Part shown: piece by piece, positions 29,682 through 62,900 of the stretch | Position numbering within the stretch: position 1 is the first letter of the stretch | How the letters are laid out: each line of letters begins with the position of its first letter | NCBI GenBank assembly: GCA_051294905.1 | Contig: CM119371.1 | Span: 30,382,001 to 30,446,000, forward strand | DNA from: Botryllus schlosseri | Taxonomy: Eukaryota | Direction: 5' to 3' | Length of the DNA stretch: 64,000 nt | The notes under the pieces: generated by a model | Databases searched by the model: none | Seen by the model: the letters and a program-made list of their open reading frames with translations, nothing else | Told to the model about the DNA's origin: nothing | Program-made: the position numbers and the translations under genes

Positions 29682-29803
29682 TAATGTTTGCTAGCTGTTT
29701 GAAATATGGTTGAGTGGTCATTGATTTTGAACCGATGAACGAATATAGAGTTAAATATACACGGATGAAAGCGTAAACTATGTAAGTAATTAGATAGCCT
29801 CAG

Positions 29804-30072: not shown

Positions 30073-32410
30073 AGATAGCCTCAGTTTACCAGCCAAAATA
30101 GAGAATAGGGAAACATATTGATGACATGCAATACATTACCCACAACATGTTCATGTGATAGAATTCGAGCCTGCGCCAATGGTTGACGAGTATATATACC
30201 ATATTCGAATTAAATTGACCTAAAACTGGAGGTTTCGTCAAGGTAATACCAGAGAACAGGGATTTATATTTTGCTATTAAATTACTTTACTATTAGTTTA
30301 CGACAACGTAAGCTGTAAGCTCCGATCCCTTCGTCTGTGGTCACTGGTCAATTTATTTGTGAGAGAACAATGGAATCTCAATAAATCGCACGATTATTGA
30401 ATAAGTGGTCGCTCTCACGGGTTATACAAGAGCTTCGCAAACAATCCGAACATATGCAAGATATAGTGATTTTTGTTGACACAAATTACTTGATGACTTG
30501 AATTTGACGCGAGGATTTTGCTCCGAGTCACGAGTCAACCCACATTTCTGATGCACCGAGTCAAGTCAAGTCAAGTCATTTTTGCGAAGTGACTCCTGAA
30601 AAGTCAAGTCATGCGTAAAAGGTGACTCGATTCTGACTCGAGTCATCCCAACACTGATGTGATAAAGGTGCAGCCAAGGGTTTAAAATCGTGTAGGATTA
30701 TGACTAGGCCGGCATCACTATCAGATTAATCGAGGAAAGTCATATTATAGGTCAGGGCTCGGGGATGAACCATATTGACCCTATATTTTCAATTGTGATT
30801 CTGAAATAGCCATACCAGGGATCCAGTCGACCATCACGTGACAATTGAAGATTCGTGGCGTCATGGTGGCGAAAAATAGCAGTTCACTATACATTAGGGT
30901 TACCATACGTCGGTAGGAGGATTTGTCCTCCTTTTTCAGGAAATTGAAAATGTCCTCCAAGGACGACTAAATATCTTCCTTTTTGACAATTCGCCTTTAC
31001 AGCTTTTACGGTAGGATAATGGACACTCAGGCCTCAGAGTCAACTGAAAACCGGCATAAATGACGTGAAATAGGTGATATGGACGTTCGAGCGGGTCATT
31101 CGGGATTCGAAAGAAAGTGATGACTTTTATTTTTTTGGTCAAAAACACGAAACTACCGGAAAAGTGGGTAAATCGGGAGTCGAATTTGAGTGATGACCTC
31201 TTTTATGGCCAACATAAAATTTCTGGTAATTATAGGCCTACCAGCTGTTTTCAATTTCGATCAACTAACTTTTTTGATTTTGTAGTGTCCTTATTCCTCG
31301 ATTCCAAAACATGGTAGCCGTACTACGCATGGGATTCGTCGAATGCACCATATTTGCTGTTTATACACGCGGATGTGATGTTATAACGCCCGCACTAATG
31401 AAACCGGTTGTTCGACGTTTGAGCATGCGTCATAATGGAAGACGACAGTTGAGCAAGGGTCAATTTACCTTTGCTACACGGGCAGGAAACCTTTTGCAAG
31501 CGTAACATATTTACTTTATTTCCTTTAGACGAGTCGTATGATCCTTTTCAAAGGTTAAGGCCATTAAGATATACATTTTAACGTAAAACAACGATTGTAA
31601 AAAACAGTAAACATTAAACAACAGACAACAGGTAGGCTACCGTATTTGCCCTATTGTAGAATAATCAATTATATTTGACTGCATGATAATGAAATATTAT
31701 TAACAGCAAATATTAAGCATAAATTGTAAGGTTTTGAAAGGGGCTTTTGAGGCCTTAAAACCCTAAGAGTATGGCCCTGTCTTGGCCTCATAAACACTAC
31801 AACAAAGCTACAAGAATAATGATTCCAGCCGTATTCAAAATTTATTGAGAAACTGCGGCAATATCGATAAACAAGATGTGAATACAGTGCCAAATTATAA
31901 ATCCAAAATCGTCAATCGCAATTTTTACATAGCCCGCGAATTTGGAGGTACGCTACCGGGATCATGGCTTGCTTCGGCTCACTAAGGAGCAGAGGTGGTC
32001 GGTACCGCAGTACTGCTTTTTTGGATTAGTCAAATAAGTTTTGCCTACATGCGCTACTTGAATTTTGTTAGCCCAACGTAATGCCTTGAGATGAGTTTGC
32101 AGCACCGTGACGAGTGAAATTATCATGGGAACCACGTGAAATAACCAATGTATTACCTATAACTCGATATATTTTCGAAGATTGTACCTATTTGAAGTGT
32201 GATTGGTCCTTTTGCGTTAGTCACGTGGAAGCAAGGCTTTGGAGCCGGAGCCGTGTACTTTCAACAGAACCGGAGCTGGAGCTAATTCATGATAGAAGAG
32301 AGCTCCGGAGCTACAGCAGTTTAAAATTGACGCCAGCTCCAAAGCTGTGGTTGAAAGTATGCAACCTTTTAACCATTTTTAAAGCACTTCAATAGTTTTC
32401 AGGCCTTTCA

Positions 32411-32681: not shown

Positions 32682-32913
32682 TCATCCACGGAACAGGTCA
32701 CTGCTCTCCGCCATGATAGCGGACACGCATTGGATGTAGGCGAATCTACCCAGGTCGCTGGCGAACTCATTCCAATCCTTGTTCGGCTCGGGAGTTTTGA
32801 TCTTCGGGGGAAGGTAGTAGGTGCAGGTTTGCGTTGTCTGACTGGTCGGCAAGTAAATGCCTGGACTTTCCGTGCGGAACGTGACAAAGTAGTCTCCGCT
32901 AGCTGGATCCAAG
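32682..32913 (-). CDS. Fusion gene exon 26 (terminal, TGA)
   Basis: ttttcag acceptor. Reads SLDPASGDYFVTFRTESPG...SSDLFRG*. Confidence 0.85.
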
Positions 32914-41900: not shown

Positions 41901-44900
41901 AAAGAGAGAAGAGGAGGGACAGAAAGAAGGAGAATATAGAGCTTCAATTTACAATAAACCCGAACATTTTCGGCAGACACTCGTCAGGGATAATCGTCAT
42001 CAACTAGTGGAGAATTGGATAGAACATTGTACCCAATTCGGCATTCCGGAAGATCCAAACACTCCGTGACCTTGGTTATGGAAGCTGCCATATACAGCCT
42101 GATATTTTCCAGTAGACGGTTCCAAAATATGTCCAGCGATGTTAGGGACCATTTCTTCATCTGGCTCGGCACTGAAACATGATAAACCCATGGCAGTAGT
42201 AAGAAATGACATAAATTAATTTTCAAGGCTATAGTAACGACATATGGGAGGTGCAAGATTACAATAAAGCGGTGGTGCCAGAACTTGTTCGCAGTCGCAG
42301 CAGCATTTAATTCATAAAGCTTGATGGGGGTGCATCAGTAGACATAATTAATAGCAATCCAGTAAGGGCCAAGATGTTTTATGTGGGTACAATATGAAAC
42401 GTACACTTATCCTTGTCATAGCAATGAAGCGCAGTGGGAAAATGAAAACGTAAATATTAAATCCTTCCATCTCTAAAAGGTACATACCCAGGTTGTTCGT
42501 GCTCCACAAAGCCAGAGTCCAAGGCGCGCTGGTAGGCATATTCCCATTCTGTGAATTGATTTTTGGCCCACGCCGGCCACACCTGGGACGGCCTGGGGAT
42601 GTAGCGGCGCCACTGCTGGTCGTTGTGGAACTCGTAGCCGGCGTTGAAAGTCATGGATCTTTCGCCAAATTCCCATGGCTGGAATGCAACATAATAGAAA
42701 TGTGAGCAAATTATTCTCTGCCCGAGGTGGCGAAAGTAGTCAAGTCAGCGTTGCTACTCATGTAGAAGTGACGTCATAAATATTTACTCAAGCACAAGCA
42801 GATGTATTGATATACAAGCCATGACAAAACTACTTAAGTGGAATGGGAAACTTAAGGATAAAACTACTCGTATAGTGTCACATAGTAGATTTTTTCGAGG
42901 GGGCGCATGCCTTTAGCACAGATGTACTTATCATGGTGTCCACTGACGCCTTGAGAGTCCCCTGACAAATTTCAATGGGTCCATGAAAGGTCAATGTTAA
43001 AACTACAAGTATGAAACTACATTGTGCTTTATAACATATGTCATATTATCACTCGATGACCATTTTAACCTTCAGGCCGTTTTTTATACAACAACCAGAC
43101 CAGGTGGCAAGACGGCAAGATATAATTGGGGCTGGGTTGAAATCATGACCTTTTCAGTTTCCAAATTTAGAGGTTCACGCATTCAACTCAAGCATCTAGG
43201 AATATGCGCTCGGAAAGGTTAATAAACACCGCTTTGCCAGTTTATCAGAGGTTTATGCTTCCCAATTCACAAGTTGCATCTTGGCACCCAACGCAAAGTG
43301 GCTGATGATGTGACGAGTAGATGTGATATTCCAAAATATAATACATTCACGCGATATGGGGCTTTTTTAGCCCGGCTGTTGATAGTTTACAATTTAACAC
43401 ACGAAGGTGATGCAGACATATCACCAATCCACATTGCACATATATACAAAATTGAACGCGCAAAAACCAGCATTGTACTGACTCAAGTCGTAATTTTCCG
43501 TCGACTCGACTTGACTATAGTCATTTTCTATAGCCTAGCCTTAGTAAGCAGTGCAGGCAAGGAAAACCTACTGTGTAGCCCACTCTAATAAAGTAGAACT
43601 ATCTTCGTTACCGACCACCTCTGAGTTAGATGAATCAAAGTATGAAGCTCACCTTGACGGGGTCCAGTCCCCAAGACTCCCTCTCCGCGTCGTATCTGGC
43701 CAACATCTGCGAATGCATGTAGCCGAACAATTCGCCCTGACGTTTCAAGTGCTTCGGGGTTGCTTCGTCGAGCGCCAATCCTTCGGCGGTGCGGCGTAAA
43801 AACTGACTCACGACGTAGACGATGTGCCAGTGTCTGGGAGGATAGGTACATTGAATTAGGCGATTTCATCAGACTTGTACAAACTACTAATCTAGTTAGT
43901 TGTTGGTCAACTATCTATTGGTTATTTGAGTAGTTTAAGTTCTAATTGCGCATTTATATTAAAATTAGAAGCTAGCTCAGATTCGTCACTACTAACAGAG
44001 GCGTAGCCAAGGGTGGATTCGGATGGTCGAAACACTTCCCATTTCATGTTTCGGTTCAGTTCATGTAGAAATCCGACTCCGATGAAACAATAATTAATTG
44101 GTTGCTTCGTAATTGAAAATAGTTAGTTGTGTTTTAGTTTGTTGCGGATTTTTAAAGGTCGTTAGTTCTAGTACTAGCTCTGCGTTTTCAAAATCCACTA
44201 GATTGTACAAGTTTGGAATATATAATCTTTTAGATATTCGGAAGACGAGTCCCAAATGTATACAATGTATTCAGGAAGGCATCAATATGAATAGCTCTGT
44301 CAAATGAACATGAATAGTACGGCCATATTAAAGGCCCCCATCTATTTACTTGAAATACATGAAAAATTAGAATTCGCAATTTTACTGAATGAATACTAGT
44401 CATCCCTCGAATTTGCCGAACCGCGACCTGGCATATCGATCTCGCCTTCCGTCACATGCCATCTCGTTTTGTCGTTTGTCTTCTTTCAGCTTTCATTCAG
44501 TGTGCATGCCTCGCTTTTTTACACCGCCTAGGCCAGGTGGTGTCTGATTTAAAAGACTACTCCAAATCGTTTCGATACTTGCCTATGCTTTCGTTGTATC
44601 GCAGTCTTGTGGTGTATTGAAATGGAAATTATTAATAGTAAATTGTTTGATGGAATTGATTGATTGCAGGTTATGATATTTTACGATTAGGGACGTATCG
44701 GGATGAAAATGAGACATTTTCGAAGTTTTAACTCGCCCGGTTGACGAGGTTGGTTAAACCATCACCATCGGTATGACAGACTACATACAGTGCAGTCACA
44801 TTCAGGACAATCATCGATTTTCAGAAGGGCCAGTAATGAAGTACTACTACTTCAAGTGCGTTTTTACTGACACTACTAAAGTGGTCATTTTTAGGCGACT

Positions 44901-47900
44901 TACTTATACTTGACAATTTACTGTTTTATACACAAAACTAAGCCCGAAATACTTACTTTTTTACTTACTTACCAAGTGTGAATAATCCACCGGAAGATAG
45001 AAACTTGAAATTTCATGCTCAAAACCACACATCTCTAATTTCATGCATGCGTGTATACAACAATGCGCTTACCTATGATGGTAATTGAAGTCCGCGTCAC
45101 ACCTCCAGTAATTCATCCAGTCTTCCTGAGGTAGACCCTCACGTTTGGTGACCATCATGGCTGCTCCGGAATAAAGTGAAGGGTCTCGGTCCTCGGGTTC
45201 TGGATACCTGAATGAATGAAGCAGAAATGTTAGGAGAATGCCAATGCCAGTAGCAGTCTCTACTCTGTGGTTTATAAACTTTGAGCAGTACTTAGTCTGG
45301 TCGCACTATCTGAGGTGGTCAGTAATTAATATTTGCATACTTGCACTATATACTCGAGTACCAACAGGACTAATGTGACCACAGCTATATGCGGGTCTCC
45401 GATACGTACTTGATTCCAGCCTTCTTTGCGTCCATCGAGTGCACGATGAAGGCTTCCAAAGCCCATCGCAACACCATGTAGTTGACTTCGTAGCCCTTCT
45501 GCAGCTTGTCAGCGTAACTGACGGTGGCAATCAGGTCCTGCGTCTCGTCGTACTTTGTGAAGAGCATCTCGACGATCTTGGAAGCTTTCTGGATTTGATC
45601 GATATCGAAATTGCTGAACGGCCTGCCAAACAAGATATTTTATAGAAATGTCACAATGGAGGTAACACTTATTATTCAAGCAGGACTAAAAATAATCCAA
45701 TGACAGATATGTAATGCAAGGAGTTGCAGCTTGATAAAGTAGTCTGAGCATGTGTAAGTCTAAGTTGCTTTTTGCTGGACAATGAACACCTATTTGTACT
45801 GTTAAAATTCTACAAAATTACAGAACTTATGTCACATTGCAGCAGACGCATACGTTTTGCGTTATCTATCAGAAGTGCCAGGAGAATTTTCGTGACTAAT
45901 AAATTGAAGGAACACCTAATGGTACCATGTGCGGTTACATTTTGTAACTATTTTTAACCGTTTTTTTACGTCAATAAATATTGACTCTAGAAAGTTCGTA
46001 ATGTGAAATTGTAATTTGACTTAACATATGAGTAGAAAGGTTGAAGTCAAGGGAACTTGCCGAAGTTGTTCAATTACAGAATGAGCTACTTGAGTGTGTA
46101 AATGGGATTTATTGTGCACTACGTAACTACGACAGAGCAATAATTATTATCAAAAATTTCCCCAATTCATAATCTAATCATAGCGATGAATCTATTCTAT
46201 GAGAAAAATCCGACCAGTACCTCCCAAGACGTACGCCACTCAAATCGTCTTCGCCATCACCATCAGTGACCGGTGACCAAGTCAACACGCTGTTGACCCT
46301 CTTTTGCAGATTAGCGGAGGTGTACTTGTCTTCAACTTTGGCTGAAAATGAACATCATATATTATACGTGCTCTTCGTAATTTATTGCAATATGCAATTC
46401 TGTGTCCAATTGCGCGCGCTCATTTGATGGATATGCTCGCTGAATTTGGTGGTGAAACCTTGATCCGATTCGGGAACGGAAATGATGAAGATTAGCCTCA
46501 CAAAGGTTTGACTTACGAGGGTTTTTCAGCTTGTTCCAATTCTTGGTCAGCTTCGACAGGGCATCGTATTTCACGCCGCGGCTCATGAGGTCACTCAGCA
46601 TCTGGTTGAACTCGCTGTCCGCTTTGGCGGTGTTCTTTTCGGCCAGGTACAGCTTACCTCTGGCCAACACGAGATTGCCGTAATCCATATTATCCGATTT
46701 GGTGCCCTGAGAAAGGTAGGTTAGTAGGGAGTGACGAAATACTGTTAGAATTCATTTGGTCTGGAAACATTACCAAAGTAATGTGCTTCATTTGGACTGA
46801 AACTACGAGTTTCTTATTGAGCAAAATAAAATAGGTGTATACGGTACATCTTTTCCAAATTGATGCCCGCAGTCACAAATTTTAGTTGAAAAAAGTCATG
46901 TTCTACAGAATACAAAATATACAAAGTATATCAAAAGTAAGAAGTTTCACGTAAATAACTCTCAAGTTAAAAAAAAAGTATTGTAAAATCATAACCAGAT
47001 TGCTAAGTAATCCATGTAGGTAAAACCTACTTGAGTAATGTTAAAAAGTCGAAGTACTTCTTTACTGACACCTACTCACTACTCCCACTTCTACCTGACA
47101 GTTTTTCTGGCTTAATTACTAAATTTTACCATTTTGAATTTTAATAGTAGAAGATACTTTTGCGTCATCTTTTGACCACCTCAGTTTGTATATATAAGAT
47201 TACGACAGGAGAAGCGGGTGGCGAGATAGCGTAGTGATGTAATCTAAAGCTGCAACACCAATGCGTTGCGGGTTCGAGGTCGACTCCGGAAGAATTCCTA
47301 CCCAAATGTTGGATGTTTATTTAGGCTCCTCCTCGCCTCCTTGCGGTGTCTAGAAGTGGGCCGTGCTACAAGACGGCAACTACAGAATACAAATAAAGAG
47401 AATTGACCTGGTGTAAATGACCAATGACCACAGTAGTCGGCAAATACCTACAATACCACAAACAACAACAGCAATAACAACAACATCAACAAAAAGCCTT
47501 ACCTGCTTCTGGTAGTACTCGATGATGTCGTCCGTGTCTTTCAAAAGCTTGCCGCGCGACACCGCAGGCCCGCCCGTACCTACTTCCATCTGCCTGCGTC
47601 CACCTCTCGTTCTCTTCTTTCCCGTCACTCCCGCCTTTCGCGCCTTGTCTCTGGCGATGCCTTCAAAGAAAGCGATCATGGTCGCTACCTTTGATTTCTT
47701 CTTCTCGACTGGCTGCGACTCCATTTTCTTCCAGAAGTTGAGCGATTTCTGGAAGCGATCGTAACTGGACGCTTGAAGAGTGGCGGCGGTGACGATCTGT
47801 AATGGATGAGCCGTCGAATATAGCACCATGTAACAGCTAGGGTCAAGTGAAATCCATATCGGCAGCTTCAGAACTGAGCAGATGTGGAATTCGTGGTTAC

Positions 47901-50900
47901 GATCAGCGGCCTTGAAAAGCCATAAAGGGTAAACGAAATACGTGTACTTCGTCGATTCTCGCCCCACGGTAGGATGTCAATCGGGTTAACGGCGATTTCA
48001 GGTAAAATTGTGCTTTCACACCCTTTTGTGCTAGCGGTACACCCGCTCTTACAGAGATGTATCTCAGGGATGTAGTCGATGGTTGTAAACCTTTTTTTAC
48101 TTTCGTAGTTACTTGTTCCATCTAGTTCGATTGAAAGTAAATACACCAAATCATACATACACATATTACATTCGCATATATTGCCATACATATTGTTGCA
48201 TTATACCTGTAACAATATATATTTATTTGTTTTTATATTTATATTCATTCGATTTATAAAATAAGACATTGGTACGTTGCCATGAATATCGTAGCATCAC
48301 AAAATTAATATTCGGATGCGAAGATATGTAATTTTCGGTATATTTGCTACGTGCCTACCTACACCCATATATGAACGGCCGCCATCCAATGAAGACAGGG
48401 AGAAGCTCATAGTTTCAATTCAACAGTCACAAAGAGACTAGAAATATTTGATATCTCAGTGGAACGGCTTGAAACAAGTATGCCGAAGCCAGTCAAAATC
48501 TAAATACGGAGCTAAAATATGACAAGCCTACTTTGCGATCATTGCCAATTAAGGTTCATAATTCAAAGCAGATAATACCTCGTCTTTGGTCTCCTGATCC
48601 TCGTCATCATCATCCTCGACCGTAATGGAATACGATGCTGTGAGAACAAAAATCTCGGTATTATATATGATGTATTATATATAAGAGCGACTTTTGCTTC
48701 AGGACAGCAACAGGCAATAGTATATTCAATTGGTGTCAACGGCTGTTCATATCCATGCATTTCTCTACCACACTCTTAGCGAAAAGAGTGTGTTTTTCCA
48801 CCTGGGTACCACCCCCTGATATACGGGTGTGATTCAACACCCATGACACACGAAATCAGATCGTGTATCAGACTTATACCGCGGTATAAATAGAGTACAG
48901 CATTTTAATCCAAATTATTCATACACGAATAGGAACGTAGAAGTTATGACCACGATGCAATTCTGAGTTAGGTTCTGTTGTGTGCCACACTTTTAGGCCG
49001 TTTGGGTGTAAATACATAATCTTTTCGCTAAGAGTGCGCCTAGCCATACATGTAGCTGTGTTTTTACGAGACCAGAGCGGTTGGCTGTATATAAAATCGA
49101 CCAGCACGTATTTACTACCATCAAATGGCGCCCGGGTAAACATGCGAGAGTAAAAACAGCGAACAGAACGCACTATTTGAATGACTCGCCATTTTGAATT
49201 CGTCTGTACCATAACAGTCACTATTTTGAATAACTTCCTATCATGACATTCACTGTTATGAATTTCTCGCTATCACAACACTCACTTTGAACCCGGGGAG
49301 CCCCTTCAAATATACGCATGTAATCTGCGCAATAATCGAGAGGCAAGTAAGGAATGTCATTCAACATAAATCACGGAGATTTTACTGATTGTTAGTTAGG
49401 CAATGTATTCAAAGACTTATGATTATCGCAACAGTGAAATATCATACGGGTATCTGTAGCTGAAACTGAGATCAACAAACGTGCTTTTTGTATCATTCTG
49501 CCGATGCATTTCTCTCGCTCTGCCATTTAGTACATACTATTATTGTGTGATTTGTAGTATATGTATACGTTCTTGAATAGCATATTCATATTAAAATGAA
49601 CCCGAATATTTTCGGCTGACACTCGTCAGGGGTAATCCTCTCTACTAGTTGCTGACGATTACCCCTGACGAGTGTCAGCCGAAAATATTCGGGTTCATTT
49701 TAATATGAATATGCTATTCAATTGTATATTGAAGTTCTGTACCTCAAAGAAGCTGTTCGTATACGTTCTTGTGACACAAAAGATTTGAATGCGAAGCGCA
49801 TCACTGTGCTTTCCCATTTTGTTACATATATGTATGATGTACGAAGGACATGGAGTAAAAAAACAAGGTTAGTGATTGGTTATATGATTTGCTAACGATA
49901 TTCGCTTATTCACCAACGATTTGAATCCATACCAAAAATAAAGTCAGGAACGATTCGAGGCACTTGACTCGACTCGATCCAATTTTGCAATGGCTTGAAA
50001 TCGCTTGCGACTCAAAGGTATTTAGAGACATGATTCCAACACTGCTGTAAATATGGAAACGTTACTTACCAGATGTGACATTGTACCGTCCGCCGTTGTA
50101 AACAGCTCTGACTTTGTAAGTCCCAGGTACGTCAACTTGATATCCTTCAGATCCGGCACCAACGGTGACCAATTGACTGTACCTGTCCGGGCCATCTTTG
50201 GCCTCGGCAGTGTACAAGACCTTGGGCTTGCTGTATCCAGAGTAGATTGGCCGGACAAATGGATCCACAGCCTAAAATGAAATGAGAAATGAGAAGTTAC
50301 TGTTGGGCGCGAAAGGTGAGAAATTATGAGCATCAGGGGCAATATAATCGTTGACAACGTCGTATGATGGTTTCACTTTGACATCATAAACAAGAAACAG
50401 TGCGAAGTGCATCATAAAAGCAACACACCATTCTATTCATGATGTCAAATATATTTTCCCTGTAAAGATATCATAACGGAACAGTGAGATAAATTTGACC
50501 ATGTTAATCAGGAGGTCAAATTGTTATTCGGTTGCGAGATCCAAGAATGAGCAATGATCAACTGAGCATGGATATAAACTTTTAACTTCGGATTCGAACA
50601 TCTTAGTTGATTCCCAGATCATCGTGGAGCCAGTAAAGAATTTTGATTGAACATGAAATTTACGACGACACTGAATTTTCACAACGGAAGGACTATATTT
50701 CTGTCGATAGAAATTTATCATTCGATTGATACTACTCACAGAAATATCTGAATCTGAAAATATATAATGCCCTCATGTCACGATTGGGAAATGAACATGC
50801 AGTATTATCGGTTTATGAACAGATTTAATCATTCAAAAGTTGGCAATATGATGCAACCAACGATCTAACACACAAATTCTGCCCAACTCTTCGTCCATTG

Positions 50901-53900
50901 GGACAAATATATGTCATCACCATCCCAGAATATATAGATGACACGTAACTATAGGGTTGCATTTAAAAAAATCGTTGTTTAAGACACTATGTTTAGAACA
51001 TGTTTTAAACAGTGTTTTGAACAAAGGCCATTGTGTTTTTTTTTCAAGTTGTAAAATCACGCCATAATTGAGTAAATACCTTCCAAAAAACATGTTGTAT
51101 CAGCCTACGGACAATTACCACCCGATATAGCCCGCGTCAAAGAAGCTATATTCACCCTATATTTTCAATTGTAAATGTTAATCCACTGTGACGTCACAAT
51201 TGAATATCCGTGACGCCATAGCTTGAAAAAAACAAAATAAAACGTAAAAAAAACATGTTTCCAAAAAGGGACTAGTTTTAAACAGGTCTGTTTAAAACTG
51301 ATTTTTGTTTTAAATGCCACCCTAGACGTGATCCTTATCGCTGAAGTTAATCCGAAATTTTTAGATTAGCAGGACACGGCAAGGCCTCTCATGAATTGAA
51401 TAATATCCCAATGATAAACCTTGGTGGAGCCATCAGGTTTGGTGATGTAGACTTGCAGATTCCCAGACTCTACGGACAGATCTCCTTCGACAAGCGCCGG
51501 CAGTTTGCCCACATTCTTCACTCTCGCCTCGAAACTAAGCAGCTGGCCCTGAAAAGATATTTACAAGTTGAAATCACACTGACTCGATTTGAATCGGGTA
51601 CAGCGTCTTAGATTTAACGGGGTGTGAAGGGAGTCACGTTCTTTCACACATTTTGTGATTTTCATGATTTATATAAAACTGGAAACATGATTACGATCCA
51701 AGTTATGTTTGGAAATCCAGTTTTCATTAACCGGCATGGGCACATGCCTATCCGTTTTACAAGTTCAATGGTAAGTTTTGAATACGTTCAATTGTACTAC
51801 ACTATTTGTGAAAAGAGTGTAAAGGTGCGACGCGAAAAACGAACCTACTACAGAATTTAGAAACGCCGTTCACGGGGCTTCGATCGAATATTTCACCCGA
51901 TTTGTTAGCGTCTGAACAGCATTTCCTTGTCAGTGTCTTTGTTCTAAGTGCCCACGTTACTTCATACTCTATTTGTGCTTATTCTAATTTGTCAAGCATC
52001 ATTTGGATTAAAGTGTTTCATTTGACGGCTACTACGGTGCAACTGGTTCGAACAGGGCTGTAAATATGCCTTGTATTACACACACATTTGTCGAATCCGA
52101 ACGCACGTTGACGAAAGACACTCAGAACCTGTATACCAGTGGTTCTCAACCTTTTTGTCTTCGCGGACCCCTTTCGGACCGTCACGGAGCCCCACAAAGT
52201 TTCAGTTCAGATTTAGCTCAATTATCGAGCAATCGTCTTCTGTCTTGTGCAAATGATAACTGCAGGCTTAGTGATAAACAGCAAAAAAATGACTTTTCTT
52301 GAAAATAAGATCATACTATCCATGTAGAAATTGAGTTGACTTCTATTACTTCAAAGCGAATTCTGTAATTGCATTTCTTGAAATACGTGGTCGCGTCTTG
52401 AAAATCGGCGCCTTCGATAGGATATCAACGAGTGCCGAAAATGCAATTCCACAAATGTAGGTGGTGGCGAATGTAATAACAACGCGTAACGCTTCCGACG
52501 ACACATTTGGGTATGATCGCAACAAATATGACACCAAAATTGACAAACTAATTTTTTAATGACCATATAACGTCAAGCATGGTCATTTCTATCTAGGAGC
52601 TAATCTTGAAGTTATTATGGAAGAATGGTTATATATACCACAGTAAAAAAGGGATTTTTGTAAAAATTTCGAAGTCACCGTGATTGACCTTACCCATCCA
52701 ACTTTTTTCCACAATCGCCAACAAAACATCTCTAAACAGAAAAATGTGTGTACCCGAATAGGCTATTGGCAATTTATCAATTGAAATGAGTCTGCACAGT
52801 AGGATATGTCATCTCAGAGTGCCATTCTGTTGATGTGAGCTCTGGAGTTCTACTAGTAATGAAGCGAAACTGCCTCGTGATTTTCCGAAATAAAAAATAC
52901 ACAAGTTAGCTTATCAACTATTTTGAGGCTTCGCGGACCCCCGGTTGGGAATCGAACCACTGCTGTATACCATCACCTTTTGGTACTTCTCGGGTAATTT
53001 CAGATCGAGCGCTATTTTCCTGTTCGGCTTAGCCTTCGGCTTTGCCTGGTCTTGATACCCGGCTTCCATATCGTAATCATCGTCGTCGTCAGCTAGTTTT
53101 GCGTCTGGCGCCTCGGACTTGACGCTGTATCCCGGGCCCATGACGGAAGCCAACAGGTCTTCGCTACAGGCTGCTCTGAACACCTGGAAATGGGGAAGAG
53201 GTAGGTTATCAGAAGACACGTTAGTCAGTAATGATACATAATCTACTTTATCGGTATATCCTCCAGCATATTGTGAATGCTTGAGTAGTCATTTACGTTG
53301 GTACTCTACTTCTACCTGACTACTTTGACAACATCTTTAAGTAACGCAGTAATTGACAGGACGTAGTCGTAAGTTTTGCCAAGCAAACAATATAATATTA
53401 ACCAATATGCTTAATATTTATAATATCATCTAGAACAGTGCTCTTAAACCTTTTTTGGAGGGGTGCACCATTCAAAGTTGTTGCTTTGACTCATGCACCA
53501 TTGCCATGTCAAGCTACATAAATTGCGCGTGTCAACAACAAAAAAAGTCATCACTGTCATCCATTTGTAAGAAATAGATGTTCATGCTCCTTAATATATG
53601 TGTATTGTGTACCATTAAAAACGTCGTCACTTTACTGTGGCTGCCGAATATTGGTTCATTCATCAAGGCTGGTTATTGAAATTAGGTCGACAAAATCTCG
53701 GGTTTCAACCCCTGGATAAAAACTACTGACTTCAAGTGCAATGTTTCTCATGCACCCCTGTGCACTCTTTTGTGCATCCCGTGCTGTTTTCATGCACCAT
53801 GAGGTGCAGCTTACACACCGATTGGCGAGCACTGAGCTAGAGTTATCATCAGCGTTTTCTTTGCAATGTGCAGATTCATTGCTATAGCAGCGATTGTAGA

Positions 53901-56900
53901 CATTGGAATTCCATGCAAAAGTGTGACGTACCTTGGTGGGAGAGTGTCTCAGAATCATCAACTCCTGGTCGCTGAAAGTGTACGAGAAGTTTCGGTAAAA
54001 CGAGCCTGGCTCTTTACCGACGTCGTAGCGGTGCGCGTAGTTCATCCACGACAGTGAATCGGGAGCGCCTGTCACAAACTCAAATGTTATTTTGAAGGAA
54101 TGTAGCAAAAAAATCAAGTAACAATATATGGCCTATAGAAGTATTCCCAAACTAGCGTACTATACCTATCATATTTGTCCTCGTCTCATACCTATATATT
54201 CTTAGCGAGAAGAGTGTGCATTTACTGCCGAAAGGCGCTACAGCAAAACAGAATCCAGGGGGGATTCAGAAACCACCCCATTCTCGGGGTGTCGGTGGAA
54301 TATGTCACAAGATTTGTAAGCCAATGAACAGTATTTCCTTGTTTGTGCGTTTCAATTTAGAGCCAATTTGAGACAATCATCCTTATCAATCGGCATTTTT
54401 CTTTCTCTGTATGTATATATTCAAACGTTAGCTTGGTTCGTTTAGCTACTTTGCGGTAGACACTGTTCTGATTGATTCGTGTGTGAAGCATTGTTAGAAA
54501 TTCTACGTCCTGATATGCGGACATTCGTCCTTGCTCCGTTTGTGCTTATTGCAATTTGTCAGCATCATCCGGATTGAAAGTTGTGTTTGATTTAAACCTC
54601 GGTATAATTATGCGATGCGTTGTTTTCGTACACCACCTTTTGGGTGTGAAAACACACTTACTTCACAGCAGCCCTTCAGTAAGTGTGTACCCGCGAATAT
54701 AGCACGGCTTTCAAACTCAATAGAGAGGAAGGCACACTGTTCCAGCTTGATATCGAGGGCACGGGCTGCACAAATACAGCCCCGAGATCGGTGGAAGTCC
54801 CAACGATTTTCCGCGGAGGCAATATATTGGGTGGCGTAGCGGTATTGGAGTAGTTGGCTGTAGTAAGGCACCAAATTTTCGATTTAACTTACAAAAATTA
54901 ACTAGCCCTTGGTTTACGGTATACGAGGGAAATCGGGACGCATGTCATTATCGAGCTCTGTTGCGTATCAAAATAGTAGGGATGGTGTGAACCTCTGAAA
55001 GGTTCAGGTTCGTGTGAACGCGAACCTTTTTGAAATGTTCTGTGTGAACGCGAACGTGAACCTCATGACGTCACGTGACGTCATATTGCTAATTCCAACC
55101 CTACATTTCAGTGAAGTGATAGCCGATATTAAAGGGGCACTGCGCTCTAAAAATGATGTGGTCTCAAATTGAAGGTAAAAACGAACAAAAATTTTTGGCC
55201 GCAGCCATTTCCTTCAGAACGCCACCGTAATGGAGCTGCAATTTATTGAAATTTCTACAAGACCTGCTGCCGCGGCTGCTTAACCCGTTACATGGCACGA
55301 TGTCTTCATCGTCGCACTTGCTCGACGCGATTAGGCAGTCACGCAGAGAACGAATTTTAGATAGTTGTCAGCCGATGTTATGAAGGAAATGTGTCTAAGT
55401 TTCGTTCTCTGCGTGACTGCCTTATCGCGTCGAGCAAGTGCGACGATGAAGATATCGTGCCATGTAACGGGTTAAGCAGCCGCGGCAGCAGGTCTTGTAG
55501 AAATTTCAATAAATTGCAGCTCCATTACGGTGGCGTTCTGAAGGAAATGGCTGCGGCCAAAAATTTTTGTTCGTTTTTACCTTCAATTTGAGACCACATC
55601 ATTTTTAGAGCGCAGTGCCCCTTTAATGTGCACGATACCTAGCGACGCCTGAGGCCACATAAGGCCAGAATGCTGAAGTAGATGGTGACGTTTAAACGTC
55701 GCCAAATGTATCAACTGGAGCAAACAAATGATAATTAATCCCATAAAATTAATATCTTCCGTCGCTTTGACAACAATTTCGACGAGGACTTGCAAGGAAT
55801 ATAAGCTTACGCCTTAGCGGTCTCAGCCAGACCGGACAATGTATTCGGCATCTGAGTAGATTGCTATGGGCAGAGTGTACAACGGGTTTCTCTACTCGCT
55901 ACCGATATTACTCCGTTAACAAGTTATACAGCAGTAACCCACACCCCAATCGCACGGATTTGGTTTTTATGATACAATAAGCACATGAAATCAAGATTAA
56001 CCCCGTTCGCCGGCTAGATTTTTTACATCAGACAACGCTATCAATCTCATTGATTGGTTGAATAAGCATCATTCTCTGAATACCTTCATGTAGTGTATTT
56101 CGCTCTTGATGTAGTGTAATTGCGAATCAATCTCAACTTTTGTAACAAAGCAAGTACAATTTTTGATATTGTCAAGGTGCATGATCGTTTAGTGTTGATT
56201 TTTTACGCTGCCAGCGTCATGCATATAGTTGCCCGCAGTTTGAATGCAATAGATTTCATCCAGAGATGTTATAACGAAGTGAAAATTGTAATTTCTGAAA
56301 AAGGTTCACAGGCAGAACCAACCAAGGTTCTTTTGTGAACGTGAACCTCTAAATTTCTGAGGTTCACACACAGAACGCGAACGTGAACCTCGCGTTCACA
56401 CCATCCCTACAAAATAGTCTACTTTTCCCTGAAAAAAATTAGTTAAGTCTTGGAAACTACTACTTATTGTGGATTGGTAATATATGACACTACTTATTAT
56501 TGAACTGAATTATAGCTGCAGCTACCATGACTACATCAGCGTAATATGTGATTTAACTACAAAAATGGCTGTTAATATCGTCCCAATTCTACAACCACAT
56601 ACCAACTTCGAATGGGTGTTTCAGTCCCAGGCAGTGGCCACACTCGTGCACGAGATAATGCAGCAGACGGCGATGTGCCTCGGCCCTTCTCTTCGGACAA
56701 GACGCCTCCAGTCCTTTGAATGATCTGTGCCTAGAATATAACGATATTCAATAATGTATCTGGAATGAACATAGGGCTTTCTATTCCCATAAAACATTGA
56801 TCTTGCCAATGATCCGTTAGATCAATACTAATCCTTTATTTAATCTTGTTTATATTGCTGTTGTTTGTATATTCTCTAAACTGTTATAGTAGTTCTTGAA

Positions 56901-59900
56901 ATGAAAACAGCAACATTAGGTTGATTAGTTCCGTGTGATCCAGACTATATGCAATTATGCATATTCACCCACACATTATTAACAATCAAACTACACGGAC
57001 TGAAAATATTTCACTTTGAATTGACTCGAAATTGGAAAACATCAGAACACTTGATTTAGACTTGCGTCAAATTTGCGCGACTTGACGCATGACTTGACTT
57101 GAAAATTTTTAAAATGTATTGGCTGGACTCGAGTCAAAATATGCAGCGACTAGAAATGATTTGTGACTCCAAGGCAGTGACTTGATCCCTACACTGAATC
57201 GAGTCAACTTCAAAATTTGAGTGGCTTGACTGAAGACTTGGCAAGAAACAATTTCAAATGAATCGTTTTGTCGCGAGTAAAAATACGCAGTGACTAGAAA
57301 TGACTTGTGGCTTGAAGTTAGTGACTTAACCCTGACATCGGGTTCAACCTCAGTTTAAACGCAAGTTCCAGCTCAAAGAACGTTTCTGATGGTTGACACG
57401 TGCGGCTGTTGTCGGAAAGACTTTGCACAGTACTCACTTCGTGAACAGCCCAAATCCATGTTTGCCTCTCTTGTCAAACGAGAACCCCATGAACCTCTTG
57501 TCGGGTGGCACAGTGCCCAGCATGCACCAGATGTTCTCATCGGCACTCTCCGACTCGTCAAAGTAAGCCATCATCACCTCATACAGATCGGCCTTCGTCC
57601 ACGGATCGTGAGGGGTCGGATCGTCAACCTGAAAACGAATAGCGCTTCTTTATCAGCTGTTCTCATCTTCAACCGAAGTTGGAAAACTAGAAAATTTACA
57701 GGTTTTCAAAATTAGATTCTAAGTAGAATTGTAGCCACGCAGTGTCTACAAACTAGATTAGAATTAGAATTGCCGAATCAAAAATAGTCAACCGACTCAC
57801 AATTACAGCCTATCGCATAATGCTTGAAAAAATTCAACCCCATACTGAGGTATATCTCACTGCGCCCGTGGAAATGTCTCCGTGGACTTCGGAGAGATAC
57901 ACAGTTTAGAAATACGCCCCTTATACTCATAAGTGCCTGAAATGTTGACTTTTATGGAGAGCATACCTTTTCACAGTCGTTCTCGTTGAAAATCAGCTTC
58001 AAGCCGGCATCTTCAAAAGCAGAAAACGGATCGAGCTTCCTATCACGCAAAACGCGCGGGGTGTCGCGAAGATCTTTCAAGCTGATGGTGGGCCAGATGA
58101 ACTTATCGGTGTAGTCAATGTCCAACTTGACCTCCTTGAAGAACTGAAAAGGATGCATTACAACTTGATCAATCGGCATCTAGTCGATCTGCAATATTCC
58201 TTAGCCCATTTTCAATTCAGTAATTCCTATTATCATTTATAACAGCGGTTAACAACCGGGGGAAATTCCCCCCTTGGGGATAATTTTGGAATTTTTAGGG
58301 GGAATCTGGCTTTAGGGTTGCATCGGAAGATACATTGGGTTCACAAGGCTTTTAAATTTTTATGGTAGAACTGTTAAGCATGGAACTAGTGCCATAGTAG
58401 TTCTTTACAATTGTATGTTTCTTAGTTGGATTTTAAGCTAGGTAGATGCCTTCCGTAAATATTACACGCCCTGATAAAGTGAGGCCCGCGAGACGATTTC
58501 GTTGGGCCCGTGACAGCCTCTCGACCAAATTACTACTAAGCAGGAAAAAGTCAAGCCGAATTTTGCACAAGTCCGCTGGTAAAAACGTCTACCTTAAAAG
58601 CCAACACATGAGCAAACGTGAAACACATACCAAATTAATCGATTCAGCTCAAGGCCATGGTAAGCGGACTTGGTGATTTATTTTTCGTCAGCGGCTACCC
58701 GACCGGCAAAAACAAGTCAAATCGAGCTGTACCGTACTAAAGTGTAGTGCATGCGGTCCGCACTCGACAAAGTTCTGACGTATCTGAATATGTTTGGCCA
58801 TACATTGCTCAGTCAACAAATGGTTGCGCGTTAAAAACACCTTTTTTTAGCCACAGACAGCTTTTTCATAGGGTGGAATTTTAACTCAAATATTGGCCAA
58901 GGGGTCCACGAGACGAAAAAGGTTGGGAACCAGTTATTTATTAGTTCGTTGTGTTTTAGTTGGTTATTGTTGCGGAGTTTTAAAGGTCGTCAGTTGTACT
59001 TCTCGTTTTATAGTTGTAGCTTTTGAAAAGTGAGCAGTTTTCGTTCTAGTTTTAGTTGCACATTTTGACAATCCAGTAGTTTTTACAATACTGACACTAA
59101 CACACGCATACCTTTCCAGTTCTTTCCAGATCGTAAGACACTTTCTGTTGACCTTTGATCATGATGTCAAGTTTTGCCGTCCATTTCGTCCCAGCGTTCT
59201 GGCGTAGCGCGAGATTGATCTTGCCGCCGACACGCGAGCCTGTGCTGAAAACGGCCTTGATCCCGGCCGTCACCGTGTACGTATCGGGTTCGCCTCTGGT
59301 CACTTTCAGGGTCATCGGCATGATTTTGAAATACATCGACGCTGGCCTGCGTGACAAGTGCTATCATCGACAAGAATGATTTAGACTTAGTGAGATTAGG
59401 CACACTCAGAAAGCTTTCGTAACAATTATTTCACCACATACTTTTGTGTCCGAGCGAAAATGAAAGGCTGGCCTATATTTTTTTGATATATAGGCATTGG
59501 GGCTGTTCACAAAAGCCAGGGATATATAGAACTCTATATATCCCTGACAAAAGCTTTCATATTCCTACTACATTGTTGCGACAAAAGACACTTCCAGGTA
59601 TTGGCTTTCACTTGTTGAATACATTTTCTTATATTTTACCCGCTTGTCAGTGTAGGCTATTTCCTCTTCGAGGTTGCCAATTACAGTGTGGAAAGAATCT
59701 CAATTGAGAACTATATCACCATCGTTTGTAAAGGGCTATTTTATGAAAAATACTGCCTTCCAGCTGGTCAGCGTCGTGATTTCTTCTATTGTATGCAATT
59801 TCTTTATCTAAACCAGTGGTTCCCAACGCGGTCGATATTGTCCTCCAGCGGGCGATTTTTAGAAACAAGGGGGCGAAAATACCGAAGGGGCGATTGGGGG

Positions 59901-62900
59901 GAGGGAAGTGTTTGAGCTTCCAGTGATATATATTTAATTACCACGGCCAAAGTGCACGTGCAGACGGCTTATTCACGTGAACACAACGGGAAGCAGACGC
60001 GGAAACTGGTTTACCGAGCACCTACACTAGGAAAATTACTTTCTTGGGCCAATTCACCAGCCATTAGAGTTAGGTGAATCAATTTCCGTTTATACGTCCT
60101 CTTATTCGGATCCCTAATTATGGGGGAGGGGCGAAGATTTGTGTCGAGCATGGTAAGGGGCGACGAGCCGAAAATGGTTGGGAACCACTAATCTGAACGC
60201 TACCACAGGCGCATTTCCGGATGCAAATGCGTGAGAGGGGCATGCCCATTCATTCAGGCACACCTTCAACACGGTGTTTAGTCGTGGTGAAGTGACGAAA
60301 TTTGTCATCGTAAATACTATTATATCCAGACGCGGGCGGAATGTAAATTGTGATCAAAGTGACAAATGTCATGCTTCAAGTGTTACCTAATTTCTACAGT
60401 TTTGGATAGAAGCCTCGTATTCTTACCATGAATACGGGCCACTACTCCTTCTGCTGACTGTGCCGCTAACCATATCCAACGACTTGGTGTATTTGCCGGT
60501 TTTGTCAATGTCGACTATAAGCTGAATGTCTGCGGTGCGGTCCATGCCTTCGTAACACCCACTGCACGGATTTGCCACCGCTGTAACAAAGTAGAACACA
60601 TAAGCGCATGTTATCGACTTATCTCACGATGTGTGCTTGAAATACGTTAGTATGATGCAAGCATCCGTGCAAAATGGATGTGGAATACAGATGGCATGCT
60701 AGAAACGACCCTGCTCCTGCCGCCGTATGGCCATATTTCTCTATAGGCATTAGGCATATGAGTAGTCGACATGTTGTGATTATACAGGTATAAAGAGGCA
60801 GTTTTGCTAGTTTTGATTACCTGTCTTGTTGCTCAACGCAGAATGAAGATTACTGTGATGTTTAGTAGGCTACCCTACGCGTACCGGAGAAGTACATGTT
60901 GTGTATTTTAGGCCTGGATCTAATACACGAAGGTCACTTATTCTCTGTAACGTGATTATTCCTTTTATTTGGTAATAGAATTGGACTTTCGACTTTAAAA
61001 ATGTTTGGATTTTGATGGAGTTGGACTGAATTGAAAATGTCAGGACTGGATCAGGACTGAAAAATATCACAGTCCGCTCATCACTGCTGCTCACCACAAA
61101 GTAAAATGACAGATTTTCCTCAGACTCAAGTAAACAGATATTTACTGCTCTAAAGTGTCTTTAAATGATTGCCTTAAGCCTCCACCTCTGTATTTTAACA
61201 TGCCTGTTCATCGTTTTTGGGTGACCACAACTCACGTGCACTGATTGACTTCTTTTACGGATTCTGGATTGGAAACGTATGACATAACAATTTAAACACG
61301 GACCGAGTAATTCGTAATGTAACAATGACGACAAACAAGTTCAAAACATTTGGAAACCGTTACTTTTTACTTCAATTGTTACGAGGTACTTTGCTATATT
61401 TGCATAATTTTCAATCGAGATTATACGCACTATACGCGAGGCTACGTAATCACAGTATTAGCGCACAACAGTGTAGGCCTACACACGAGAACAACCAGCC
61501 ATAAACAACATGTTCAACGCATTTCCGGTTCAGTTTAGACAGCCTATATGGTTTTAGTTCAAACATTAGTAGTTTTTATGTTCCAAACTCCAGGCTAATT
61601 TTCGCGGGCCAGTCAGAATCGCGTCGCGAGCCGCACTTTGCCCAGGTCTGCTGTAGACCATTACCGAATTCTATTGATAGGTCTCGTAATGACCGTTAAG
61701 AATCTATTAGTGTGCAGCCTGCCGCCCGCGAATTTAGTTGGTGTGAAAAGTTTGAGACAAGCTGAGTGCGCTTAACAAAAGGCACAAACACACACTATAA
61801 TTGGCATATATGGATTTTGATGTTGAATAATTTCTTCAATGCTATGTTCGCGGGATTTGTGTACCTTAAAACCACAAATGTTTATCGAATTTTAGTGATA
61901 AGTCACGCCATCGCCGTTACTAATTGTGATCGTGGGTCCTGCAACTATTATACATTCAACGCGAATCCCGCGGTTTCAAGGCATGTTTTCATATCTGACT
62001 CACTTTTCAAAACGGTTGCACATCATTGCCGTAAATGATTTTAGAAATGTGGGTGTCACAACAAATGCAACAAATTCAGACATCATACATGCAGATATAA
62101 CAACAACCAACTTGAAGACCTGTTTCATCTTAGCTTATTGTGGACAAAAGGTGTCAGCGTAAAATAAATAATCTGTCTTTAATCGTGATGGCAACGCCAA
62201 ATCTGCGATGAGGCATCAAATTACATATTCAATCCTTCCGTCTATTTATCACTGCGTCAGCAGGGAGCGTACCACAGAGGCCATGTATTGTATACCATTA
62301 CCTCTGACTCTTGTCACCTGATACAGAACCAACTAACAAGTGCTATTCTCGAAGTCATATTCAATCAATTGGTCAAATTATCTTCAGTGTAACTTTCAAG
62401 TCGAACGCCAAATCCATTTCAAAACCACCAATACCTAGGATACCGCTTGTGTTGGGTTAAAGGGACATGATATTCGCGATTCCAACCCACAAAAATGAAA
62501 CGCTGCGATATCCAATGATGAATCAGGAGTCGACTCGCGAAGTAATTTGTGTCTGTTCACAAGTTTTGATCCATACCAAGTGCAAAGTTAGAGAGAAACC
62601 GAAACAAGATTCCCGTGCTTCACCACTCCACTAACCTAGTGGAACTTGTGTCCGGCGCGTAGGAGCGACTGATGTCCGTGCAATTTCTGACACATCACCA
62701 GAGCCCGAGTCTTCGATCCCAATACAAGCATTTAATATTAAAACCAAAATGAATCGGTTACCCCTGCAACTATTTCCACATTATCTACCATCACACTTTA
62801 CTCCAGGGGCGGGCAACTGCTCTAGTCGGCGAGCCGGATATAGGAAAATTAAGTAATTGGTAGGCCGGATTGCTGAATCGATAACATTATTCGCCCATTT

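Follow-up and report, generated by a model that had tools for sequence, protein, structure and literature searches.

Introduction

Arthropod-type phenoloxidases are made as latent pro-enzymes, and in arthropods the phenoloxidase-activating protease is a separate protein, a clip-domain serine protease. Ascidians have 'arthropod-like' phenoloxidases of their own, of which the Ciona CinPO genes were reportedly described by Immesberger and Burmester in 2004. Here we describe a gene of Botryllus schlosseri in which a predicted protease and a phenoloxidase lie on a single polypeptide. It is encoded on the minus strand of a stretch of 64,000 nucleotides (nt) (NCBI GenBank assembly GCA_051294905.1, contig CM119371.1, positions 30,382,001 to 30,446,000 of the forward strand), which we call the window and whose positions are counted from its first letter. 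The main new point is the fusion of a bacterial-type metzincin module to a phenoloxidase.

The phenoloxidase half has its described counterparts in the cytosolic beta-subclass of type-3 copper proteins (Aguilera et al. 2013, PMC3658974); in the accessible parts of that account the deuterostome members of the subclass come from hemichordates and urochordates, and the sea urchin is given no type-3 copper protein at all. Limited proteolysis raises ascidian phenoloxidase activity in vitro, according to the accessible text of PMC9395347. For the fusion itself a described parallel is the tunicate cellulose synthase CesA, likewise a bacterial-type catalytic module that bears introns, is expressed and forms part of a fused multi-domain animal gene (PMC10334666, PMC13390645, as far as their accessible text extends). 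It differs in being tunicate-specific, whereas the protease module is shared with hemichordates, and hence older, and has a function that is predicted only.

Full-text literature searches found no published description of a protease-phenoloxidase fusion. No protease domain is mentioned on these phenoloxidases in the accessible text of PMC3730353, PMC3658974, PMC11803259 and PMC9395347, and a 2026 survey of horizontal gene transfer in Ciona (PMC13390645) reports 14 loci that do not include the gene, with no mention of phenoloxidase, hemocyanin, metalloprotease or peptidase in the accessible main text. As described there, the survey screened by whole-protein BLAST, an approach that misses the module because the hemocyanin half has good animal matches.

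Results

One spliced gene encodes a protease module and a phenoloxidase

The first-pass annotation of the window, which worked from the letters and their open reading frames (ORFs), had marked 46517-60580 on the minus strand as an intron-bearing protease of bacterial appearance and treated it as a gene of its own. That interval corresponds to exons 2-13, encoding residues 17-718, of a 27-exon gene, and the module makes up the N-terminal half of a protein whose other half is a hemocyanin-type phenoloxidase; the marked limits coincide exactly with the acceptor of exon 2 (60580) and the donor of exon 13 (46517). On the minus strand the gene extends from an ATG at 63703 to a stop codon that ends at 32682 (last coding base 32685), and the final model has 4626 coding bases, 1542 residues and 26 introns. 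Conserved blocks were taken from a translated alignment of the window with a second copy of the gene, in which they form a colinear chain that passes 46517 and continues to ~32.7 kb, and splice sites were picked by frame and consensus. All 27 exons have AG/GT borders, the phases all agree, and the joined frame is open for 1542 codons. Exon 1 was located through the transcript joint 63655|60580 and then read directly; its peptide, MSHRETPPPLKRYKDD, agrees with the N-terminus of the Styela protein, PPPSKRFRDTAI.

The second copy (G000:C1:30620271-30659248, plus strand, loci L003-L007) lies ~186 kb away on the same contig and on the opposite strand, and is colinear with the whole fusion gene. Its exons have 42-86% amino-acid identity to those of the window gene, and the motifs HECGHCLGLKH and SLSWMNY are intact in it. 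With amino-acid identities of 53-75% between the paralogues their synonymous sites would be saturated, and Ka/Ks was set aside for this reason.

Contigs assembled from two runs of two studies, X1 and X3, which are labelled RNA by guess only, contain spliced joints at 63655|60580, 53932|53183, 51420|50271, 50070|48637, 48579|47796, 47503|46706, 46517|46341, 46221|45622 and 45410|45207, such that at least nine introns are supported among the joints listed. Every joint has CT..AC ends on the plus strand, corresponding to GT..AG on the strand of the gene, and three of the nine connect protease exons to phenoloxidase exons. One X1 contig of 1428 nt spans exons 10-16, and a 927-nt contig of X3 likewise crosses from module to phenoloxidase exons; since contigs of both runs cross this junction, we conclude that the two halves belong to one fusion gene. 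Within the genome, all 31 matches to the gene (30 of 51 candidates scored) fall in two intron-bearing loci, with no processed copy among them, and the spliced contigs therefore derive from RNA. In two raw-read RNA runs (X15 and X19) the depth falls nearly all on repeats, with none on most exons. A single 683-amino-acid (aa) exon on another eukaryotic contig (locus L012) runs from the protease catalytic region to the copper A site.

The N-terminal half is a predicted metzincin

The series of motifs that had been listed for the module is present in full and in place, in minus-strand open frames: SGCYEG..LIVDID..VSG (60426-60623), AFEDAG (57955-58179), WTKADLYEVM (57437-57649), VHECGH (56592-56747), PDSLSWMNY..QEL..LRH (53659-54132), ITKPDG (51369-51560), PGTYKVRAVY (50065-50271) and NMDYGNLV.ARG..LSDLMSRGV (46365-46751). 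The string HECGHCLGLKH at residues 297-307 is an extended zinc motif of the form HExxHxxG/NxxH that characterizes metzincins, and its three histidines and its glutamate are invariant in all 69 aligned animal and bacterial members. The Met-turn SLSWMNY is also present, with its methionine invariant (69/69) and the following Asn-Tyr conserved in at least 90%. With these motifs, the N-terminal ~700 residues are identified from sequence as a metzincin-type zinc protease module with predicted proteolytic activity. From conservation alone we distinguish an N-terminal block, the catalytic domain, an acidic linker, a second conserved block (ITKPDG...PGTYKVRAVY) and a C-terminal region (...LSDLMSRGV) that is probably helical.

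The module matches no existing family model well. Searches of five full-length orthologues against Pfam gave nothing above the cut-offs outside the hemocyanin domains, with weak matrixin- or reprolysin-like matches at HExxH, and single exons of the window did no better, again with weak matches around HExxH. No NCBIfam model matches the family in a search with nine proteins, nor does any PADLOC model in a search with seven members. Peptidase_M43 (PF05572, cut-off 23) scored 15.2 bits against a window exon and 13.7 bits against P0082 and is not listed for the orthologues, and Peptidase_M10 (PF00413, cut-off 24) scored 19.1 and 16.4 bits. Reprolysin_4 (PF13583, cut-off 22) is passed by two of 43 bacterial ORFs (28.3 and 24.0 bits), with one further bacterial ORF at 30.1 bits; the window exon reached 11.5 bits (E 0.24), and this model is not listed for any animal orthologue.

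Against solved structures, in matches that cover the zinc site and Met-turn only, a profile of the 69 family members found ulilysin (M43; 2cki) best (E 3e-4), followed by matrix metalloproteinase (MMP) 12, serralysins and MMP-8, and a profile of seven animal sequences found MMP-8 (E 0.005). Ulilysin, of the pappalysin family (M43), has the Met-turn FMNY in common with the module, and the zinc motif HEIGHxxNLxH is common to ulilysin, the bacterial members and the hemichordates. The match, however, covers only ~43 profile positions, tunicate members have Gly for Asn in the motif, and ulilysin has no counterpart of the N-terminal block, the second conserved block or the C-terminal region of the module. 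MMPs and serralysins (M10) resemble it in HExxHxxGxxH and the Met-turn, with weak profile matches to MMP-8, MMP-12 and serralysin (E 0.002-0.02), but the module lacks the PRCGxPD cysteine switch, signal peptide, and hemopexin or RTX domain. The absences that had been noted at the outset were thus borne out: the cysteine switch is missing from the model in a regular-expression search, the N-terminus MSHRETPPPLKRYKDDAVANPCSG has no hydrophobic leader as judged by eye, and none of the five full-length orthologues has a Pfam ancillary domain of the animal astacin, ADAM or MMP kind. The lack of a cysteine switch and of a signal-peptide-like N-terminus fits the cytosolic beta-subclass of type-3 copper proteins (Aguilera et al. 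2013).

The C-terminal half is an arthropod-type phenoloxidase

By domain and structure matches the C-terminal ~820 residues are assigned to the arthropod-type (beta-subclass) hemocyanins and phenoloxidases. In the Styela clava orthologue (P0001) both Hemocyanin_M (78.6 bits) and Hemocyanin_C (90.7 bits) exceed their Pfam cut-offs, and a comparison of its C-terminal half with PDB structures found a scorpion hemocyanin (3ixv, E 8e-45) and the phenoloxidase of Manduca (3hhs, E 3e-35). Six copper-ligand histidines, assigned by eye, lie in HHRHWH, YMHSQM, FHNQGH and YRWHRK and align with those of 3ixv by way of the Styela protein. The likeness to arthropod prophenoloxidase and hemocyanin extends to the cytosolic-type character without a signal peptide; in contrast to the arthropod proteins, a metzincin lies on the same polypeptide, and the arthropod N-domain is not detected by Pfam.

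A Botryllus schlosseri phenoloxidase (PO) record, P0002, belongs to the same family and groups with the window gene and Styela (SH-like approximate likelihood ratio test, SH-aLRT, 100), but has 758 aa, with an initial Met that matches the start of exon 15, and represents the C-terminal half only of what is a ~1500-aa protein in genome-based models. We note that many metagenome proteins of ~559 aa labelled 'tyrosinase' (P0013-P0041) also contain Hemocyanin_M and Hemocyanin_C and have ~53% identity to exon 17; in the tree of the phenoloxidase half they are the outgroup.

The module belongs to a scattered bacterial family

The first-pass annotation had proposed that the module matches an uncharacterised family of bacterial proteins from end to end, and BLASTP, profile and tblastn searches bear this out. 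A profile of seven animal modules retrieved three hemichordate proteins and 15 others (669-793 aa, E 7e-103 to 1e-31); all 15 are bacterial-type stand-alone proteins, two of them named as proteins of Gemmatimonadales and Acidimicrobiia metagenome-assembled genomes (MAGs). The bacterial members have the motifs in the same order as the animals, from SGRYEG..LRVDVD to ..LKARGV at the extreme C-terminus. By BLASTP the window module aligns with an ORF of an Anaerolineales MAG at 26% identity over 726 columns (query 21-707 of 709, 177 bits), and homology to the bacterial proteins stops at about residue 707. Comparison of the animal and bacterial profiles with hhalign gave a probability of 100 and E 4e-72 over 467 columns. 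In the ESM Atlas, used as a lead only, the rows shown for the Styela module at a score of at least 0.9 are clusters that are 87-100% bacterial (21 from unnamed clusters and two with a minority Peptidase_M10 label, among 30 rows).

A pattern scan of prokaryotes, with one genome per species, produced 532 matches, of which 215 were confirmed by tblastn and 80 kept. The kept loci belong to at least 11 phyla (Chloroflexota, Acidobacteriota, Bacteroidota, Actinomycetota, Pseudomonadota, Gemmatimonadota, Planctomycetota, Cyanobacteriota, Thermodesulfobacteriota, Bacillota and Krumholzibacteriota), and in every one of the 80 the gene is a single uninterrupted ORF. Carriers include complete isolate chromosomes (Streptomyces, Simiduia), and the neighbouring genes are ordinary bacterial ones. 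Of 301 genomes sampled from the phylum of the Streptomyces carrier, the family turned up in 5, and of 301 from that of the Maribellus carrier in 4; these counts include the centre genome, and at most three candidates were scored per genome. It thus behaves as a rare accessory gene, scattered over these phyla.

The 57 ORFs at eight bacterial loci form no conserved operon and include no hemocyanin or tyrosinase gene, and on this account we dropped the possibility of a linkage between protease and oxidase that dates back to bacteria. At two of the eight loci a TIR-domain protein (L019:5083-7269) or a SIR2-TPR protein (L021:11375-13351) adjoins the metzincin gene; both match anti-phage defence models, a hint that some members of the family reside in defence islands. 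Two group B loci (see below) also have small, similar ORFs of 139 and 136 aa (L021:7308-7724 and L024:7401-7808) that end in PFGYG and immediately precede the metzincin gene in the same orientation; neither has a Pfam or PADLOC match, and their product may be a partner protein of the metzincin. In Planobispora rosea (L027:5289-9974) the ORF with the longest start has 1562 aa, with ~900 extra N-terminal residues without a Pfam match before the metzincin region, and may represent a different fusion on the bacterial side, with the start codon as predicted by the longest frame.

Phylogeny of the module and of the phenoloxidase half

Two trees were built from the module, one of 82 rows (12 animal-like and 70 bacterial, after removal of near-duplicates of >75% identity) under LG+G4 and one of 55 rows under the site-heterogeneous model LG+C20. 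Both place all 12 animal-like rows on one side of a branch with SH-aLRT 100, and this branch joins between two bacterial groups, B (9 or 11 rows, support 96 and 93) and C (61 or 32 rows, support 98 and 97). Group B consists mostly of Anaerolineae, together with single Vicinamibacterales, Maribellus, Competibacteraceae and Gemmatimonadales rows, and is 24-26% identical to the window module, compared with ~20% for group C. It mixes five phyla at 53-83% identity to P0072, with the exception of the Gemmatimonadota member L026 (42%). The trees are compatible with a nesting of the animal sequences inside the bacterial ones.

Among the animal-like rows the order is the P0010 cluster, then tunicates, then hemichordates together with the P0065/P0007 cluster, and the tunicates form two lineages with a Clavelina member in each. 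A tree of the phenoloxidase half yields the same subgroups, from which it follows that the halves have stayed joined ever since one fusion event.

Distribution of the fusion among eukaryotes

A search with exon 17 for longer proteins (42 matches among 118 candidates) recovered fused proteins of ~1500 aa from Styela clava (P0001), Phallusia mammillata (P0004, 1502 aa) and Clavelina lepadiformis (P0006 and P0008, 1530 and 1505 aa) and from the P0010 cluster (1496 aa). The Styela protein (LOC120329438, 1546 aa) is 58% identical to the window model (896 of 1543 columns), from residue 17 to the end. Members of the P0010 cluster are intron-free and lie on contigs of 6-9 kb and one of 1.38 Mb; a metagenome scan for this cluster yielded distant relatives only, and the ESM Atlas gave no separate cluster for it.

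A profile of exon 5 had 10 matches at E <= 0.001 among 1.84 billion representative proteins, of which seven are animal-type, including uncharacterised proteins of Saccoglossus kowalevskii (618 aa), Glandiceps talaboti (514 aa) and Ptychodera flava (700 aa). These hemichordate models hold the module only, and a Glandiceps 'hemocyanin F chain-like' protein (P0009, 962 aa) begins inside the C-terminal region of the module; the fusion is probably present in hemichordates and split by annotation. Named eukaryotic holders of the module are restricted to tunicates and hemichordates, and further eukaryotic carriers of the fusion are the P0010 cluster, P0003, P0007 and P0065, and the loci L012 and L015.

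Origin of the fusion

We regard it as likely that the module came from an ancient transfer from a bacterium to an animal and was subsequently fused to a phenoloxidase, and we infer both the direction and the date of that transfer. A rare mobile bacterial accessory gene would have been taken up by an animal that lived no later than the ancestor shared by tunicates and hemichordates; because the module is shared with hemichordates, the event predates the split of these two groups. In-frame fusion of the module to the 5' side of a resident beta-type phenoloxidase gene would have followed, with a gain of introns and adoption of the codon usage of the host, and the fusion would thereafter have been inherited vertically, duplicated in tunicates and lost in many lineages, including those without this phenoloxidase class.

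Integration into the host genome is evident from introns, the host contig, transcripts and orthologues in related species. The contig is 41.8 Mb in an assembly of 495.5 Mb, the gene lies 30 Mb into it, and the G+C content of the window is ~36-45%. The module has a G+C content at third codon positions (GC3) of 0.66, and the phenoloxidase half one of 0.65. Transcript contigs differ from the window at no fewer than 40 coding positions; 33 of the 40 listed are synonymous, as are 27 of the 31 in the module (4 are not), and 101 more differences lie beyond those listed. The excess of synonymous differences among those listed, the GC3 values and the intact zinc motif and Met-turn of the paralogue are signs of constraint and of a long stay in the host genome. 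Outside the recipient clade the closest relatives are bacterial in the searches made, which covered proteins 279-1225 aa long and a pattern scan of prokaryotes.

The earlier argument that the introns rule out bacterial contamination holds, and is joined by the spliced transcripts, the length of the contig and the orthologues in other tunicates. Of the proposal of horizontal transfer, the bacterial identity of the best non-self relatives and the patchy occurrence in animals both largely stand; the expected nesting of animals within bacteria is compatible with the tree but no more than that, the tree being unrooted with its midpoint on the animal stem. The description of the gene as an old, domesticated acquisition is likewise supported, although not as one specific to tunicates, since hemichordates and other eukaryotes also carry the module.

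Several observations weigh against an origin by transfer. The trees are unrooted and have their midpoint on the long stem of the animals, such that animals and bacteria may be reciprocally monophyletic, and only ~40 columns can be aligned with other metzincins for rooting. Identity to bacteria is only 24-26%, and the donor therefore cannot be named. No bacterial-type homologue was seen with the exon 5 profile among nine of its ten matches examined, two of which resemble unrelated repeat proteins; the profile misses the bacterial family because exon 5 covers too little sequence to reach it. A word-indexed search of longer proteins with the exon 5 peptide gave nine candidates, none of which scored. 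The scope of the sensitive profile search was 8000 word-sharing candidates in the length range 279-1225 aa, and eukaryotes were covered only indirectly. The eukaryotic range extends beyond the named records, perhaps far beyond them, and proteins with Hemocyanin_M also occur in sponge, ctenophore, fungi and amoebozoa according to the accessible text of Martin-Duran 2013 (PMC3730353).

One rival explanation is vertical descent, in which an ancient family from early eukaryotes or the last common ancestor of cells was kept in few animals and lost elsewhere, which we consider unlikely. Midpoint rooting, with animals and bacteria reciprocally monophyletic, agrees with it, as do within-animal relationships that look vertical in both halves and the extra eukaryotic carriers, which show the range to be under-sampled. 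It nonetheless requires losses in most eukaryotic groups, and there is no stand-alone eukaryotic homologue among the 18 matches of the seven-module profile search. The bacterial family, moreover, is rare and scattered over at least 11 phyla, and group B itself mixes five of them, a pattern that points to transfer. Less probable still is a transfer in reverse, of an animal or other eukaryotic gene fragment into bacteria with subsequent spread there: one rooting makes the animals sister to group B, but the diversity of the bacteria is far larger (at least 11 phyla and the deep groups B and C), the bacterial form is complete and stand-alone with neither introns nor a trace of phenoloxidase, and a root in group C makes the ancestor of animals and group B bacterial by parsimony. 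That two adjacent genes were wrongly joined, as the start of the Botryllus record at a Met equivalent to that of exon 15 and the separate N- and C-terminal models of hemichordates might suggest, or that the assembly is contaminated by bacteria, can be set aside almost entirely, since single contigs from two runs of two studies cross exons 10-16 with exact GT..AG joints, splice phases are continuous, five full-length fused proteins are on record, the L012 exon spans the junction, two Glandiceps models abut in the alignment and are reported on contigs of equal length, 29,028,597 bases (which suggests a split annotation), and the gene, with its 26 introns, sits 30 Mb inside a contig of 41.8 Mb.

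Exon coordinates and other features of the window

Exons of the fusion gene. Positions are those of the window; X1 and X3 are the runs from which transcript contigs were assembled.
Exon	Position	Strand	Residues	Content and evidence
1	63655..63703	-	1-17	Start codon 63703-63701; MSHRETPPPLKRYKDD + 1 base; direct read; joint 63655|60580 in X1, X3
2	60427..60580	-	17-68	Module N-terminal block SGCYEG..LIVDID..VSG, aligning with bacterial SGRYEG..LRVDVD..ISGD; contig piece 60438-60580
3	59112..59346	-	68-146	X1 contig piece 59112-59328
4	57967..58143	-	147-205	FFKEVKLDIDY .. AFEDAG; X3 contig piece 57989-58143
5	57438..57628	-	206-269	WTKADLYEVM .. MGFSFDK; X3 contig piece 57437-57626
6	56603..56730	-	269-312	Zinc site HECGHCLGLKH (residues 297-307)
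7	53932..54068	-	312-357	Met-turn SLSWMNY, ..FSDQEL..LRH; joint 53932|53183
8	52977..53183	-	358-426	Acidic linker; X1 and X3 contig pieces 52976-53181
9	51420..51548	-	427-469	ITKPDG block; joint 51420|50271
10	50070..50271	-	470-537	PGTYKVRAVY block; X1 contig
11	48579..48637	-	537-556	Short, acidic; joints 50070|48637, 48579|47796
12	47503..47796	-	557-654	Lys/Arg-rich, module C-terminal region; X1 piece 47502-47796
13	46517..46706	-	655-718	Module end NMDYGNLVLARG..LSDLMSRGVKYD; joint 46517|46341
14	46221..46341	-	718-758	Linker between halves; joints 46517|46341 and 46221|45622 in one contig each of X1, X3
15	45410..45622	-	758-829	Phenoloxidase half starts; Botryllus PO P0002 begins here
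16	45073..45207	-	829-874	Model and contig
17	43653..43833	-	874-934	Copper A region HHRHWH .. ELFGYMHSQM; Pfam Hemocyanin_M 34.6 bits (cut-off 20.8)
18	42488..42678	-	935-998	Acceptor set by alignment to P0001
19	42033..42171	-	998-1044	Copper B His pair FHNQGH
20	41646..41845	-	1045-1111	Third copper B His FYRWHRK; Pfam Hemocyanin_M E 3e-4
21	40647..40807	-	1111-1165	Model
22	38900..38996	-	1165-1197	Hemocyanin_C region
23	37963..38149	-	1197-1259	Model
24	36607..36780	-	1260-1317	Pfam Hemocyanin_C 26.7 bits (cut-off 26.4)
25	35795..35976	-	1318-1378	Model
26	34212..34475	-	1378-1466	Model
27	32682..32913	-	1466-1542	Ends with stop codon

Repeats are present both within the gene and elsewhere in the window. 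The intron between exons 6 and 7 contains an inverted repeat (55128-55361 and 55394-55627) with arms of 234 nt that are 98% complementary and 32 nt apart; related sequence is found upstream of the paralogue, contig depth over the repeat is very high in the runs, and it looks like an abundant hairpin-forming mobile element. Very high contig or read depth is also seen in all four runs at 49057-50358, 51010-52962 and 62728-63378, which are intronic or upstream repeats, compared with low depth on the exons of the gene; these are probably transcribed or multi-copy repeat families. Beyond the gene, 20000-23700 and 26400-30650 are two direct copies of a unit of ~4-6 kb, 83-96% identical at a spacing of 5.5-6.1 kb, with further related pieces at ~18.9-19.1 kb, at ~24.9-25.1 kb and at C1:30675096-30676240. 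Positions 1-32000 of the window have no open frame of 180 aa or more.

Discussion

The arrangement of the protein invites a proposal for its function. Between the catalytic domain and the oxidase lie an acidic and then Lys/Arg-rich stretch (residues 538-654) and an acidic linker (718-758), and a conserved metzincin on the same chain as these segments suggests self-processing, in cis or between subunits. As a working mechanism we tentatively put forward a self-processing pro-phenoloxidase, which we rate as possible though somewhat short of an even chance: the protease half would process its own linker or that of a neighbouring subunit, and the protein would be a self-contained pro-phenoloxidase that needs no separate activating protease. 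More doubtful is its extension to a one-protein activation cascade, in which the cytosolic metzincin of bacterial derivation would keep the oxidase latent and, upon a trigger, would cleave the acidic or Lys/Arg-rich linker, either within its own chain or from one subunit to another. If true, such a cascade would replace, in deuterostome invertebrates, the multi-step serine-protease cascade of arthropods; the bacterial relatives, with TIR or SIR2 neighbours at two of eight loci, would be intracellular proteases of conflict systems that can be set off by a trigger, and the animal gene would add to the immune components that came from bacteria. The protein may instead be a bifunctional effector, with a protease that acts on foreign or tunic proteins; that the module is a non-catalytic regulatory cap is less likely, given the invariance of its catalytic residues.

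The analysis also defines a sizeable family of bacterial metzincins, with 215 confirmed matches in species-representative genomes, that has no Pfam or NCBIfam model of its own. The presence in animals of a bacterial-type module that is older than tunicates and common to hemichordates provides an added case for the study of evolution, and indicates that surveys of gene transfer into animals need screening at the level of domains. The fusion further suggests that database and cDNA records of ~750 aa describe half of the protein only.

Finally, the phenoloxidases of ascidians and hemichordates are central in blood-cell cytotoxicity, tunic repair and colony rejection. The presence on the same chain of a zinc protease that is predicted, from its conserved residues, to be active offers a direct hypothesis for how the pro-enzyme may be activated in deuterostomes.

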